Source: Escherichia coli (GTDB taxonomy: Bacteria > Pseudomonadota > Gammaproteobacteria > Enterobacterales > Enterobacteriaceae). From it: DNA of 64,000 nt. The first letter of the stretch is position 1. Every line of letters begins with the position of its first letter. Below the pieces are notes generated by a model. The model saw only the letters and a program-made list of their open reading frames with translations, made no database searches and was not told where the DNA came from. Of the stretch, positions 30,600 through 46,753 are shown in pieces. The position numbers and the translations under genes are program-made. The stretch lies in NCBI RefSeq assembly GCF_022846255.1, contig NZ_AP025682.1. One strand, 5' to 3'.

Positions 30600-31281
30600 T
30601 ATCACCTGGCTTTACCACCATTTGCCGATGCGTTTTAGCTTAACGGTGGAACGCGGCGAGCAGGTGGCGATCCTCGGGCCAAGCGGCGCGGGTAAAAGTA
30701 CCCTGCTGAATTTGATCGCCGGTTTTCTGACGCCAGCCAGCGGTTCGCTGACTATCGACGGCGTTGATCACACCACGACGCCGCCGTCACTCCGTCCGGT
30801 GTCGATGCTGTTTCAGGAGAACAACCTGTTCAGCCACCTGACGGTCGCGCAGAACATCGGGCTGGGGCTAAATCCGGGGTTGAAACTAAATGCGGCGCAG
30901 CAGAAGAAAATGCACGCGATTGCCCACCAGATGGGGATTGATAATTTAATGGCGCGGTTACCTGGCGAGCTTTCCGGCGGTCAGCGACAGCGCGTGGCGT
31001 TGGCGCGTTGTCTGGTACGCGAACAGCCCATTTTATTGCTCGATGAACCGTTTTCCGCGCTCGATCCGGCGCTACGTCAGGAGATGCTGACGCTAGTGAG
31101 CACGAGCTGCCAACAGCAAAAAATGACGCTCTTGATGGTGTCGCACAGTGTGGAAGATGCGGCGCGGATCGCCACGCGCTCGGTGGTGGTCGCCGACGGG
31201 CGTATCGCCTGGCAGGGTAAGACCGATGAGTTGTTGAGCGGTAAGGCGAGTGCTTCGGCGCTGTTGGGAATTAAAGGTTAA
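30583..31281 (+). CDS. thiQ: Thiamine ABC transporter ATPase
   Basis: Track ORF 30562..31281 trimmed to [20 protein letters not shown]... (232 aa); Walker [13 protein letters not shown] signature LSGGQ. Confidence 0.93.
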
Positions 31282-31288
31282 TATGCAC

Positions 31289-31385
<97 letters not shown>

Positions 31386-31394
31386 GGCTATCCC

Positions 31395-32159
31395 CTAAAC
31401 CCCAACCACTTTACGCAAAATATCGATATACACCGGCATCAACGGGTGGCGAATTAACACCACCAGCGCCACCACGCCGATGGCAGAAATCAACGGCGTC
31501 AGCCACAACAAACGACCGCGGGACAAATAATGACTCAAACGGTCAGTCGCTTTACCGCTGCGCCATAACCGCCAGCACAGCCAGCCTCCAACCCACAAAA
31601 ACACCGCTGTTGCCAGCAGCAACCATTTAAACTCACCGCTCTGCATCCCGGCAGGAATATCGATCGCCGCACCCGCCAGAATCCCCGGCAGGAAGTAAAA
31701 CGGTGGCCACAGCAAGCAGCCGATAATATTCGGCGTAATAAATTTTGCCACCGGGAGATCCAGCATTCCCGCCACCATTGGCACCAGCGGACGCGTCGGG
31801 CCGACAAAACGACCGACCAGAATGGTGAACATGCTGTGCTGATGCAGCGCATGTTCGGTTTTATCGAGTAATGCTTTGTTCTTCTTCAGAAATGACCAGC
31901 GATGCAACGGCTTTTTAAAACGCCAGCCCAGCCAGAAGGAGATCCAGTCGCCCAGCAGGCAGCCAATAATCCCCGCCAGCCAGGCGTACCAGAAACTTAA
32001 CTCACCGCTGCCAATCAGTGCTCCCAGCCCCGCCATCAGCACCGTACCGGGTAGAATCAAACCGACCAGCGCCAGCGACTCCAGAAAGGCCACCAATAAC
32101 ACCGCCATCAATGAATACACGGTAGATTGGGTAATAAAGTGTTCCAGCAATGCTTGCAT
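31395..32159 (-). CDS. yabI: DedA-family inner membrane protein YabI
   Basis: Track ORF, 254 aa, MQALLEHFITQSTVYSLMAVLLVAFLESL... Confidence 0.95.
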   Translation of the reverse strand: MQALLEHFITQSTVYSLMAVLLVAFLESLALVGLILPGTVLMAGLGALIGSGELSFWYAWLAGIIGCLLGDWISFWLGWRFKKPLHRWSFLKKNKALLDKTEHALHQHSMFTILVGRFVGPTRPLVPMVAGMLDLPVAKFITPNIIGCLLWPPFYFLPGILAGAAIDIPAGMQSGEFKWLLLATAVFLWVGGWLCWRLWRSGKATDRLSHYLSRGRLLWLTPLISAIGVVALVVLIRHPLMPVYIDILRKVVGV

Positions 32160-37000: not shown

Positions 37001-38503
37001 ATGACGATTTTTGATAATTATGAAGTGTGGTTTGTAATTGGCAGCCAGCATCTTTACGGCCCGGAGACTCTGCGCCAGGTGACGCAACATGCGGAACACG
37101 TTGTTAATGCACTGAATACAGAAGCGAAGTTGCCCTGCAAACTGGTGCTGAAACCGCTGGGCACCACGCCGGATGAAATCACCGCTATTTGCCGCGACGC
37201 GAATTACGACGATCGTTGCGCCGGGCTGGTAGTGTGGCTGCACACTTTCTCCCCGGCCAAAATGTGGATCAACGGCCTGACCATGCTCAACAAACCGTTG
37301 CTGCAATTCCACACCCAGTTCAACGCGGCGCTGCCGTGGGACAGCATCGACATGGACTTTATGAACCTGAACCAGACCGCGCATGGCGGTCGCGAGTTCG
37401 GCTTCATCGGCGCGCGTATGCGTCAACAACATGCCGTCGTTACCGGTCACTGGCAGGATAAACAAGCACATGAGCGTATCGGCTCCTGGATGCGTCAGGC
37501 GGTCTCTAAACAGGATACCCGTCATCTGAAAGTCTGCCGTTTTGGCGATAACATGCGTGAAGTAGCGGTCACCGATGGCGATAAAGTTGCCGCACAGATC
37601 AAGTTCGGTTTCTCCGTCAATACCTGGGCGGTTGGCGATCTGGTGCAGGTGGTGAACTCCATCAGCGACGGCGATGTTAACGCGCTGGTCGATGAGTACG
37701 AAAGCTGCTACACCATGACACCTGCCACACAAATCCACGGCGAAAAACGACAGAACGTGCTGGAAGCGGCGCGTATTGAGCTGGGGATGAAGCGTTTCCT
37801 GGAACAAGGTGGCTTCCACGCTTTCACTACTACCTTTGAAGATTTGCACGGCCTGAAACAGCTTCCGGGTCTGGCCGTACAGCGTCTGATGCAGCAGGGC
37901 TACGGCTTTGCGGGCGAAGGCGACTGGAAAACTGCCGCCCTGCTTCGCATCATGAAGGTGATGTCAACCGGTCTGCAGGGCGGCACCTCCTTTATGGAGG
38001 ACTACACCTATCACTTCGAGAAAGGTAATGACCTGGTACTCGGCTCCCATATGCTGGAAGTCTGTCCGTCGATCGCTGTGGAAGAGAAACCGATCCTCGA
38101 CGTTCAGCATCTCGGTATTGGCGGTAAAGACGATCCTGCCCGCCTGATCTTCAACACTCAAACCGGTCCAGCCATTGTCGCCAGCCTGATTGATCTCGGC
38201 GATCGTTACCGTCTGCTGGTTAACTGCATCGACACGGTGAAAACACCGCACTCCCTGCCGAAACTGCCGGTGGCGAATGCGCTGTGGAAAGCGCAACCGG
38301 ATCTACCAACCGCTTCCGAAGCGTGGATCCTTGCTGGTGGCGCGCACCATACCGTCTTCAGCCATGCGCTGAACCTCAACGATATGCGCCAGTTTGCCGA
38401 GATGCACGACATTGAAATCACGGTGATTGATAACGACACCCGCCTGCCAGCGTTTAAAGACGCGCTGCGCTGGAACGAAGTGTATTACGGGTTTCGTCGC
38501 TAA
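37001..38503 (+). CDS. araA: L-arabinose isomerase
   Basis: Track ORF, 500 aa, [24 protein letters not shown]... Confidence 0.97.
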
Positions 38504-38525
38504 GTAGCCGCATCAGGTATGTAAC

Positions 38526-38689
38526 GCCTGATGCGACGCTGACGCGTCTTATCAGGCCTACACGCTGCGATTTTGTAGGCCGGATAAGCAAAGCGCATCC
38601 GGCATTCACCGCCTGATGCGACGCCGACGCGTCTTATCAGGCCTACACGCTGCGATTTTGTAGGCCGGATAAGCAAAGCGCATCCGGCA
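38526..38689. repeat. Tandem BIME: two copies of a 79-bp unit, each containing two REP palindromes, in the araA-araD spacer
   Basis: Unit GCCTGATGCGACGC(T/C)GACGCGTCTTATCAGGCCTACACGCTGCGATTTTGTAGGCCGGATAAGCAAAGCGCATCCGGCA at 38526-38604 and 38611-38689 (1 mismatch). Confidence 0.85.
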
Positions 38690-38702
38690 CGAAGGAGTCA
38701 AC

Positions 38703-39398
38703 ATGTTAGAAGATCTCAAACGCCAGGTATTAGAAGCCAACCTGGCGCTGCCAAAACACAACCTGGTCACGCTCACCTGGGGCAATGTCAGCGCCGTTGA
38801 TCGCGGGCGCGGCGTCCTGGTGATCAAACCTTCCGGCGTCGACTACAGCATCATGACCGCTGACGATATGGTCGTGGTCAGCATCGAAACCGGTGAAGTG
38901 GTTGAAGGTACGAAAAAGCCCTCCTCCGACACGCCAACTCACCGGCTGCTCTATCAGGCATTCCCGTCTATTGGCGGCATTGTGCACACACACTCGCGCC
39001 ACGCCACCATCTGGGCGCAGGCGGGTCAGTCGATTCCAGCAACCGGTACCACCCACGCCGACTATTTCTACGGCACCATTCCCTGCACCCGCAAAATGAC
39101 CGACGCAGAAATCAACGGTGAATATGAGTGGGAAACCGGTAACGTCATCGTAGAAACCTTCGAAAAACAGGGTATCGATGCAGCGCAAATGCCCGGCGTG
39201 CTGGTCCATTCTCACGGCCCGTTTGCATGGGGCAAAAATGCCGAAGATGCGGTGCACAACGCCATCGTGCTGGAAGAAGTCGCTTATATGGGGATTTTCT
39301 GCCGCCAGCTTGCTCCGCAGTTACCGGATATGCAGCAAACGTTGCTGGATAAGCACTATCTGCGTAAGCATGGCGCAAAAGCCTATTACGGCCAGTAA
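38703..39398 (+). CDS. araD: L-ribulose-5-phosphate 4-epimerase
   Basis: Track ORF, 231 aa, [30 protein letters not shown]...; AGGAG SD upstream. Confidence 0.97.
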
Positions 39399-44906: not shown

Positions 44907-45566
44907 ATGGGGATGGAAAACTACAATCCGCCGCAGGACCCCTGGCTGATTGTCCTGTATCAGGATGACCATATTATGGTGGTCAACAAGCCGAGCGGTT
45001 TGTTGTCTGTGCCGGGGCGTCTGGAAGAGCACAAAGACAGCGTGATGACGCGCATTCAGCGTGATTATCCGCAGGCAGAATCGGTGCATCGTCTGGATAT
45101 GGCTACCAGCGGCGTGATTGTAGTGGCGCTGACCAAAGCCGCGGAGCGGGAGTTAAAACGCCAGTTCCGCGAGCGCGAGCCGAAAAAACAGTATGTGGCC
45201 CGCGTCTGGGGGCATCCATCCCCTGCGGAAGGTCTGGTGGATCTGCCGCTGATTTGCGACTGGCCAAACCGCCCGAAACAGAAAGTCTGTTACGAAACAG
45301 GTAAACCTGCGCAGACGGAGTATGAAGTGGTGGAATATGCGGCGGATAACACGGCAAGAGTGGTGTTAAAACCGATTACCGGGCGTTCGCATCAGCTGCG
45401 TGTGCATATGCTGGCGCTGGGCCATCCGATTCTCGGCGATCGTTTTTATGCATCACCAGAAGCGAGAGCAATAGCACCACGTTTGTTGCTACATGCAGAG
45501 ATGCTGACGATTACCCATCCGGCGTATGGCAATAGTATGACGTTTAAAGCACCAGCGGATTTTTAA
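44907..45566 (+). CDS. rluA: 23S rRNA / tRNA pseudouridine synthase RluA
   Basis: Track ORF, 219 aa, MGMENYNPPQDPWLIVLYQDDHIMVVNKPSGL... Confidence 0.96.
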   Translation: MGMENYNPPQDPWLIVLYQDDHIMVVNKPSGLLSVPGRLEEHKDSVMTRIQRDYPQAESVHRLDMATSGVIVVALTKAAERELKRQFREREPKKQYVARVWGHPSPAEGLVDLPLICDWPNRPKQKVCYETGKPAQTEYEVVEYAADNTARVVLKPITGRSHQLRVHMLALGHPILGDRFYASPEARAIAPRLLLHAEMLTITHPAYGNSMTFKAPADF

Positions 45567-45589
45567 TAGTCACGCTGGCGAAGTTCGAT

Positions 45590-45680
45590 AGGCCGGAGAA
45601 GGCGTTCACGCCGCATCCGGCAATTTTGCGCCGATTGCCTGATGCGACGCGGGCCGCGTCTTATCAGGCCTACACGTTGA
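45590..45680. repeat. REP palindromes between convergent rluA and djlA
   Basis: GGCGTTCACGCCGCATCCGGCA and GCCTGATGCGACGCGGGCCGCGTCTTATCAGGCCTAC motifs. Confidence 0.75.
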
Positions 45681-45683
45681 AAC

Positions 45684-46499
45684 TTATTTAAACCCTTTCT
45701 GCTGCTTTATCAGCTCATAGGCCTGCTGAATTTCCTGCGCTTTCTGCTTCGCCATCTCCATCATCTCTGGCGGCAAACCTTTCGCCACCAACTTATCGGG
45801 ATGGTGTTCACTCATCAGCTTACGGTAGGCACGTTTGATGGTGGTCGCATCATCCGTCGGCTTCACGCCCAGCACATTACAGGCATCTTCCAGCGTCGGG
45901 CCACGCTGCGCTTGCTGCCAGTTACCACCGCCAGATTGCTGCTGATAACCGCCGCCAAACTGTGCACCGCCCTGCATCATGCGCAAAAACTGGTCAAACT
46001 GGGCGCGGGAGATGCCTAACTCTTCGGCAATGACATACAGCACCGCCCGTTCATTCGGGTGCAGTGAACCATCAGCAAACGCCGCCTGAATCTGGATCTC
46101 CAGAAACATACGAATTAAGTCAAAACGACCAAAGCAGACACTGCGAAACTGGCGCATCTTTTCGCGCAGCGGGTAATTGTCTGATTTTCCCACCCGGAAT
46201 GCATTTTGCGCCGCAGTACGGGAAGCGCCATGCAGATTCATTCGGTCCATCAACTGACTGGCGATATGAATATCAGCCTCCGTGACGCGACCTTTGGATT
46301 TGGTTAAATGGCCCATCACTTCAAAAGTGGTGGCAAAAAACAGCGCCTGACGCTCACGCTGGTTGGCGAACCACGCCATTTTACGGCTACGGGCTTTATC
46401 AAACATATGGCCAATTAACAGGCCCAATACTACGCCCCAAAAGCCGCCGCCCATTATTAAGGCCACGGCCACGCCAATGATTTTTCCCCAATACTGCAT
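45684..46499 (-). CDS. djlA: DnaJ-like co-chaperone DjlA
   Basis: Track ORF 45684..46592 trimmed to [22 protein letters not shown]... (271 aa); C-terminal J-domain (HPD). Confidence 0.92.
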
Positions 46500-46753
46500 A
46501 TATTCCCCAAATCGACACACGGATATCAGGGCTATCTCCCACAATATAAAGGCGCTTTTACCCATTTCTGGCTGCGGTCTATTGTGAGACATCGCCTATA
46601 ATTTGCATTATCATACCTGTCATTCAATGCCGTGCCTAACACCACAGACGCTATTCGGACAGGATTAACACTAGCGTAGAGATGACGAGTACGTTAGTCT
46701 CTGACCGTTTGTCACGCGCAACGTTACCGATGATGGAACAATAAAATCAACGT

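Follow-up and report, generated by a model that had tools for sequence, protein, structure and literature searches.

A two-unit BIME-2 allele in the araA-araD spacer of an Escherichia coli araBAD operon

Introduction

Within the araBAD operon of Escherichia coli, the genes for L-arabinose isomerase (araA) and L-ribulose-5-phosphate 4-epimerase (araD) can be separated by a near-perfect tandem repeat. This raises the question of what kind of element the repeat is, how its number of units is set and whether its position inside an operon has consequences for the expression of araD relative to araBA. The example examined here lies in a stretch of 64,000 nucleotides of contig NZ_AP025682.1 (RefSeq assembly GCF_022846255.1), hereafter the window. 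The araA coding sequence extends over positions 37001-38503 on the plus strand, with its TAA stop codon at 38501-38503 (ORF list; RefSeq features under the matches), and araD occupies 38703-39398 on the same strand (ORF list; RefSeq annotation of matching genomes), with polB downstream of it in the ORF list. The array fills most of the 199-bp spacer between the two genes, and its description in an earlier note as a tandem REP/BIME array between araA and araD, inside araBAD, agrees with both the ORF list and the RefSeq annotation.

Sequence and layout of the array

The array consists of two units of 79 bp, unit 1 at 38526-38604 and unit 2 at 38611-38689, separated by the 6-bp sequence TTCACC (38605-38610), which gives a repeat period of 85 bp (79 + 6). 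Direct reading and a script comparison find a single mismatch between the units, T38540 versus C38625 at unit position 15, and this 78/79 identity is far beyond chance. The earlier note, which had reported two 79-bp units with a 6-bp gap, one difference and an end at 38689, was exact to the base. Tandem Repeats Finder reports a single array at 38525-38689 (period 85, 1.9 copies, 98% matches, no indels, score 323), and the self-alignment that had been proposed as a check thus returns near-identical units; a direct-repeat search over 601 bp detects one family only. The 85-bp register extends further to the left, to 38509 (38509-38593 versus 38594-38678, 93%), because a partial REP head similar to a unit end, CGCATCAGGT, closes the 22-nt segment immediately past the araA stop codon.

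Each unit contains two palindromic elements, as had been claimed and as a regular-expression scan and RNA folding both bear out. The long element, GCCTGATGCGACGC(T/C)GACGCGTCTTATCAGGCCTAC, has 36 nt and carries its GTAG end on the minus strand; the short element, GTAGGCCGGATAAGCAAAGCGCATCCGGCA, has 30 nt and lies on the plus strand. In unit 1, the long element is a Z2-type REP at 38526-38561 (minus strand by its GTAG end, and reading GCCTGATGCGACGCTGACGCGTCTTATCAGGCCTAC on the plus strand), followed by a 13-bp tail-to-tail linker, ACGCTGCGATTTT, at 38562-38574 and by a Y-type REP with a Y stem and a short apex at 38575-38604 (plus strand). The TTCACC separator serves as the head-to-head linker to unit 2, in which the Z2-type REP is found at 38611-38646 (minus strand), a linker identical to that of unit 1 by script comparison at 38647-38659, and the Y-type REP, identified by regular expression and folding, at 38660-38689 (plus strand). 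This last element ends 13 nt 5' of the araD ATG, and the araD Shine-Dalgarno sequence, AAGGAG (38692-38697, plus strand), begins 2 nt past it and remains free of base pairs in the predicted fold. The T/C mismatch that distinguishes the two units affects the opening base of the 4-nt loop at the apex of the Z2 REP, a location that is predicted to make it structurally silent.

The same scan of the window found two further REP pairs. One, at 31287-31368, has a Y-type element followed by a long Z-type element in tail-to-tail orientation and is intergenic, between an ORF ending at 31281 and a minus-strand ORF at 31395-32159. The other, at 45589-45673, has a head-to-head Y-linker-Z2 arrangement, which is the plan of the naRNA4 units, and lies between the convergent ORFs 44907-45566 (plus) and 45684-46592 (minus).

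Classification as a BIME-2

REPs are defined as imperfect palindromes of 20-50 nt with a conserved GTAG (CTAC on the other strand) at the foot (PMC8266576, PMC3333891). All four elements of the array carry GTAG/CTAC at the foot and fold into hairpins with a bulge or mismatch, with predicted energies between -14.3 and -21.4 kcal/mol, and the dispersal expected of a REP is evident from a 400-bp query that matched a median of eight places per E. coli genome. In both units the Z2 element on the minus strand and the Y element on the plus strand face each other tail-to-tail over 13 bp, as in a BIME. The long element is one to two mismatches from the canonical long-Z REP, GCCTGATGCGACGCTGGCGCGTCTTATCAGGCCTAC, as quoted by Durrant et al. 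(PMC11208160), the REP of unit 1 differing at one position. Published REP lengths are 35 nt for y, 29 nt for z1 and 37 nt for z2 (Corneloup 2021, PMC8266576), and the units of the REP325 array are described as Y-l-Z2 (PMC4550694); it is on these lengths and on the REP325/naRNA4 typing that the long Z (36-37 nt) is equated with Z2.

Two classes of BIME have to be distinguished. BIME-1 elements are single pairs of a Y and a Z1 REP with a long L linker that often holds an IHF site (PMC3333891), and BIME-2 elements are tandem Y and Z2 pairs with short linkers. The ara array has the composition of the latter, given that its long Z aligns to the Z2 hairpin of naRNA4 and its short element has the CCGG/CCGG stem of a Y REP. 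The apex of this Y element is 5 nt shorter than in the canonical Y, and its assignment draws on the stem and on the fact that the K-12 locus is listed as a BIME-2 in the literature. The tandem character is likewise present, with two units here and one to four elsewhere, joined by linkers of 13 and 6 bp. BIME-1 (RIB/RIP) elements share with the ara array an inversely oriented REP pair in an intergenic region, but they are single-copy and have a short Z1 and a long conserved IHF-binding L linker, whereas the ara array is tandem, with a long Z and linkers of 13 and 6 bp. BIME-1 was rejected on the tandem arrangement, the long Z, the short linkers and the lack of a match to WATCAANNNNTTR.

The IHF consensus, WATCAANNNNTTR, has no match within the array, and the whole window has two matches, where chance alone would give about 2.3. 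IHF binding is consequently dropped for this array, since it has neither an L linker nor a consensus match and such binding belongs to BIME-1 (PMC3333891).

Among curated RNA families in Rfam, only sub-threshold matches to naRNA4 and two chance-level matches to Giardia RNase MRP were returned. The best naRNA4 (RF02564) match, at 38578-38643 on the plus strand, aligns both hairpins and scores 57.4 bits (E = 7.5e-10), below the gathering threshold of 59.5, and membership was rejected. The REP325/naRNA4 locus (yjdM-yjdN, six Y-l-Z2 units) resembles the ara locus in being a tandem Y and Z2 array transcribed from an upstream gene (PMC4550694). The ara array differs in a head-to-head linker shorter by 6 nt, a Y apex or loop shorter by 5 nt and a total of two units rather than six, and the resemblance is one of shared REP ancestry, not of membership. 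On its sequence, the array is best classed as a two-unit allele of the known BIME-2 element of the E. coli araA-araD spacer, a real but ordinary occurrence, already known, of a common allelic state.

Unit number in E. coli

The number of units at this locus was surveyed by searching 5,426 complete E. coli genomes twice; each search listed 59 chromosomes at even steps down the ranking, and sequences fetched for each length class confirm the unit structure. The allele frequencies are estimates from these evenly spaced samples, and the figures are rough given the bias of complete RefSeq genomes. Spacers of 284 bp with three units account for 22/59 and 23/59 of the two samples; in the first, the flanks of most three-unit rows were not joined, and the class was inferred from four fetched rows. 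The two-unit state of the window (199 bp) was found in 10/59 and 13/59, about 17-22% of the sampled complete genomes. A single unit (114 bp) was present in 8/59 of each sample, a single unit with a boxC-like palindrome (168 bp) in 18/59 and 14/59, and an inserted IS621 in one of 59 each time. No allele of at least four units occurred among the 118 sampled rows of complete E. coli genomes. A four-unit allele of 369 bp was detected in a collection of species representatives, in NZ_JAATUR010000005.1, labelled E. coli SCPM-O-B-8794. The comparison across strains that had been suggested as a check therefore yields discrete spacer lengths corresponding to one to four units. In E. albertii, one unit is present.

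Several details of these alleles are worth recording. The four-unit allele is the largest seen, and shows several GTAG-to-GCAG changes at the REP feet. In the 168-bp allele, which makes up about 24-31% of the sampled genomes (for example E. coli 2022N21-074, L004 501-668), a boxC-like GC-rich palindrome, TTGTTTTCCCCCTCGCCCCTTTGGGGAGAGGGCCGGGGTGAGGGGAAACGACCTCTC, takes the place of the distal units, and the bases just 5' of the araD Shine-Dalgarno sequence are altered from CACGAAGGAG to CTCTCAGGAG. Over 38104-39103, identity to the window reaches 99% or more in only 10 of 5,440 matching records and is 95-99% in most, which marks it as a relatively uncommon ara haplotype whose closest strains are GPEC1186 and SCU-485.

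The unit number is not tied to the surrounding sequence. GPEC1186 has no differences from the window at 800 flanking positions, yet has one unit fewer, and in FDAARGOS_1372 an identical 199-bp spacer is embedded in flanks with 19/800 differences. Changes in unit number are therefore faster than point mutation and uncoupled from the flanks. The two units of the window, with T and then C in the loop, match the first and third units of some three-unit alleles (L006), in which the middle unit is divergent. The window allele thus looks like a three-unit allele from which the middle unit was removed, which would be consistent with recombination between the repeats.

The K-12 locus and its use by gyrase, TnpA_REP and IS621

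The orthologous array of E. coli K-12 MG1655 (approximately 66,566-66,813) has the same Z2 and short-Y unit, the same linker plan and the same flanks. Its araA-araD spacer measures 284 bp and holds three units rather than two, with REP pairs arranged as in the window. The K-12 loop is TGGC where the window has TGAC and CGAC, the head-to-head linker is TTCAAC versus TTCACC, and the left flank reads CATCCGG versus CATCAGG.

This K-12 allele is a documented substrate of gyrase. BIME-2 elements are preferentially bound and cleaved by the enzyme, as published for the K-12 allele at this locus, and Table DS3 of Sutormin et al. 2019 lists araD-araA 66566-66813 as BIMEs2 with three in vivo gyrase cleavage sites, obtained under ciprofloxacin with and without rifampicin (PMC6379681). 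A remark on the entry in the same table reads "Espeli, Boccard 1997: 2 cuts". In the supplement, the Topo-Seq signals at 66656/66741/66826 and at 66663/66748 are spaced by 85 bp (PMC6379681), which is the unit period. If the coordinates follow MG1655 numbering, the signals map, tentatively, to the GCATCC head in the Y REPs and to the partial head adjacent to araA. In the same study, Y REPs were a more frequent target of gyrase cleavage than Z2 REPs, and blocking transcription raised the BIME-2 signal (Sutormin et al. 2019). The gyrase binding proposed in the earlier note is accordingly supported for the three-unit K-12 allele by published Topo-Seq sites (PMC6379681). The strongest of the listed K-12 signals, 66826, adjoins the araA stop codon, at the partial REP head and not at a full REP.

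Oligonucleotides B315 and B316, which represent the araD-A BIME of MG1655, were cleaved and strand-transferred by the REP transposase TnpA_REP in vitro, and the number of tandem BIMEs per locus was reported to vary between strains (Ton-Hoang et al. 2012). IS621, an IS110-family element with a bridge-RNA recombinase, has the target sequence ATCAGGCCTAC (Durrant et al., PMC11208160), for which perfect natural matches lie in the Z2 REPs of unit 1 (38551-38561, plus strand) and unit 2 (38636-38646, plus strand). In E. coli 3045 (L009 690-830, NZ_CP103570.1), IS621 occupies the homologous site. By analogy with the K-12 orthologue, the array of the window would be a site for gyrase, TnpA_REP and IS621 alike.

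The junction in strain 3045 reads ...ggccataacagtat/ctacgcgctg, so that the insertion falls on the CT core of ATCAGGCCTAC, the target within a Z2 REP. A second case of IS621 in the BIME was seen in strain 2011C-4315 (H159), and insertions in the array occur in approximately one of 59 sampled genomes.

The araA-araD spacer in other Enterobacteriaceae

A single scan of species-representative genomes with an AraD yielded 80 loci, in 79 of which both the araA stop and the araD start could be located. In 77 of these 79 species the spacer is structured (47-369 nt), with a median z of -3.6 against shuffled sequences and z < -2 in 70 of the 77. The two with almost no spacer by parsing, Citrobacter sp. 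MGH106 (L031, 11 nt) and Trabulsiella odontotermitis (L087, 0 nt), may be parsing artefacts.

The structured elements are of at least three unrelated kinds, namely REP pairs, boxC-like palindromes and hairpins followed by a T-run. Under a simple motif classification, 38 of the 77 are REP-like (one of them also boxC-like), 15 are boxC-like only, 13 have a GC hairpin and T-run directly 5' of the araD ribosome-binding site, and 11 have other hairpins. A GTAG...GGCA REP oriented as in the present array ends 10-15 nt before the araD ATG in 31 species, which represent at least 10 genera; its stem varies with pairing kept (CCGGAT/ATCCGG, CCGGGT/ACCCGG and CCTGAT/ATCAGG). Tandem amplification of the unit was found in Escherichia only, among the loci scanned. 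That unrelated palindromes occur at one junction speaks modestly in favor of a useful hairpin there, the alternative being that the site is simply a tolerant one.

The hairpin and T-run loci (L020, L030, L043, L054, L056, L057, L062, L063, L067, L069, L073, L080 and L089) come from Leclercia, Lelliottia, Silvania, Phytobacter, Franconibacter and other genera. Their spacers of approximately 51 nt, such as GGCCTGCCGCAGGGCGGGCCTTTTTT, resemble intrinsic terminators, inside the operon and at the place of the E. coli BIME. One locus assigned to a distant organism (L051, CACSKA010000010.1, "Chryseobacterium sp. 18061 ... Ancestor") encodes an AraD with 94% identity to the E. coli protein and has a Citrobacter-like REP pair in the araA-araD spacer, and is probably a contamination or a mislabelled assembly.

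Predicted RNA structure and possible roles

The whole spacer, folded as RNA, has a minimum free energy of -96.5 kcal/mol (z = -5.74). The individual hairpins, in the sense of the mRNA, range from -14 to -21 kcal/mol, with the Z2 elements of units 1 and 2 at -21.4 and -21.1 and the Y element at -14.3. An additional hairpin with a 10-bp stem, at 38509-38535 on the plus strand (-15.7 kcal/mol, z = -6.05), arises from pairing of the partial REP head, CGCATCAGGT, with the head of the first Z2. It begins 5 nt past the araA stop codon and is present in the minimum-free-energy structure of the whole spacer, and it excludes the first Z2 hairpin because both need 38526-38535. Between 38200 and 39000, neither promoter-like nor intrinsic-terminator-like sites were detected on either strand; a Rho-independent terminator was rejected as an identity, no GC-rich hairpin with a U-run occurring on either strand of this interval.

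The account that best fits these data, and that is very probably correct, is of a two-unit BIME-2 allele that changes by whole units through recombination or slippage, is expected to act on the DNA level as a site for gyrase, TnpA_REP and IS621, and on the RNA level would form a hairpin barrier that is perhaps also a partial attenuator. The array would gain or lose whole units when its 85-bp direct repeats recombine unequally or replication slips between them, and the partial REP head beside the araA stop codon may have seeded the first duplication. Alternatively, the changes might come about through strand transfer by TnpA_REP (RAYT). As in the K-12 orthologue, the DNA is expected to provide a transcription-independent site of gyrase binding and cleavage, a TnpA_REP substrate and an IS621 target. 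In the araBAD transcript, the array would fold into a stack of stable hairpins that most likely bar 3'-to-5' exonucleases and so shield the upstream araBA segment, and that may partly attenuate read-through, which would set araD below araBA or allow it to decay independently of araBA.

The stabilization of upstream mRNA is a general documented property of REPs (reviewed in PMC12306157), and the intercistronic REPs of malEFG and hisJQMP stabilize the mRNA upstream of them (Newbury 1987 and Higgins 1982, as cited in PMC12306157). Those operons resemble araBAD in having REP hairpins between the cistrons of a utilization operon, with a proposed role as a barrier to 3'-5' exonucleases; they differ in that the stabilizing function was shown experimentally there, whereas for araBAD it is proposed by analogy. 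The role suggested here at the RNA level draws on this analogy with other operons and on conservation of position. A literature search for araBAD expression data, mRNA 3' ends, half-lives and REP-stabilized ara intermediates found nothing. An effect of the array on the araD/araBA expression ratio, as the earlier note had envisaged, is plausible by the same analogy, and it gains modest support because a structured hairpin element is found in this spacer in 77 of the 79 Enterobacteriaceae species. The dosage of the array does not seem to be strongly constrained, given that E. coli tolerates one to four units, a boxC-like replacement and IS621 insertions.

This tolerance is also what a neutral origin would predict. 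The array could be selfish or neutral DNA, a non-autonomous REP/BIME element that persists in a permissive spacer through TnpA_REP activity and gene conversion, with no effect on ara expression and with copy differences that reflect neutral slippage. The range of one to four copies, the boxC-like replacement of distal units in about a quarter of the sampled genomes, the toleration of IS621, the gain or loss of one unit between genomes with identical flanks and the recombination of the K-12 ara BIME by TnpA_REP in vitro (Ton-Hoang 2012) all speak for it. However, the retention of a strongly structured element, differing in type, by 77 of 79 species and the fixed distance of a REP from the araD start codon over at least 10 genera are both unexpected for pure neutrality, although a permissive "safe site" could mimic them. 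Neutrality is a genuine possibility on this evidence, but not the favored one.

The effect might alternatively be on AraA itself, if a stop-proximal hairpin stalled terminating ribosomes and so led to mRNA cleavage and trans-translation, with reduced translation of AraA. A rule to this effect, for REPs less than 16 nt from a stop codon, is attributed to Liang et al. 2015 in PMC12306157, and the 38509-38535 hairpin, 5 nt past the TAA and part of the whole-spacer fold, would be placed to act in this way. That hairpin is not a canonical REP, however, and the competing Z2 hairpin is more stable and starts 22 nt past the stop; in K-12 the corresponding stem is mismatched (CATCCGG versus CCTGATG). 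Down-regulation of AraA by this route is therefore doubtful.

Equally doubtful is the view that the array is chiefly a transcriptional attenuator, in which Rho-dependent attenuation at the BIME would cut read-through and set araD below araBA at transcription and not at decay. Attenuation associated with BIMEs has been reported (Espeli et al. 2001, as cited in PMC12306157 and PMC8266576), and the 13 other species with a terminator-like GC hairpin and T-run before the araD ribosome-binding site are in keeping with it, but the E. coli spacer has no terminator-like site. Strong attenuation would moreover be costly, since AraD is needed against the accumulation of L-ribulose-5-phosphate.

It is very unlikely that the array is the source of a small RNA that binds HU and condenses the nucleoid as the REP325 array does. 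The RF02564 match and the Y-linker-Z2 plan shared with REP325 (PMC4550694) would favor such a role. Against it, the published effect depended on hairpin structure, not on sequence (PMC4550694), the score is below the threshold, the model has a longer linker and Y loop, the match is one of shared REP ancestry, and ara is transcribed only on induction. Finally, the 78/79 identity of the units might have pointed to an artefact of assembly or to a very recent duplication private to this genome. That reading is refuted by the population data and has a negligible probability, since the unrelated complete genome FDAARGOS_1372 has the identical spacer, two-unit lengths recur among the sampled genomes at the frequency given above and the T/C difference is common to the first and third units of three-unit alleles.

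Significance

The BIME-2 of the araA-araD spacer has been catalogued and used experimentally for decades, and the array described here is a textbook repeat of little significance in itself. It has practical use as a length marker (114, 168, 199, 284 or 369 bp) that changes faster than its flanks, at a locus with a documented gyrase site in K-12 and two perfect IS621 targets.

L-ribulose-5-phosphate, the substrate of AraD, is toxic, and AraD averts its accumulation; the AraA:AraD ratio matters for this reason. A more speculative reading, and a rather improbable one, is that in nearly all Enterobacteriaceae a stable RNA hairpin may be required between araA and araD and can be supplied by any available palindrome, be it a REP pair, a boxC-like element or a terminator-like hairpin, and that in Escherichia the unit number, from one to four, may act as a heritable, fast-mutating dial of the AraA:AraD ratio. 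If it were true that copy number tunes araD against araBA, the array would represent a simple natural control of operon stoichiometry by repeat number.
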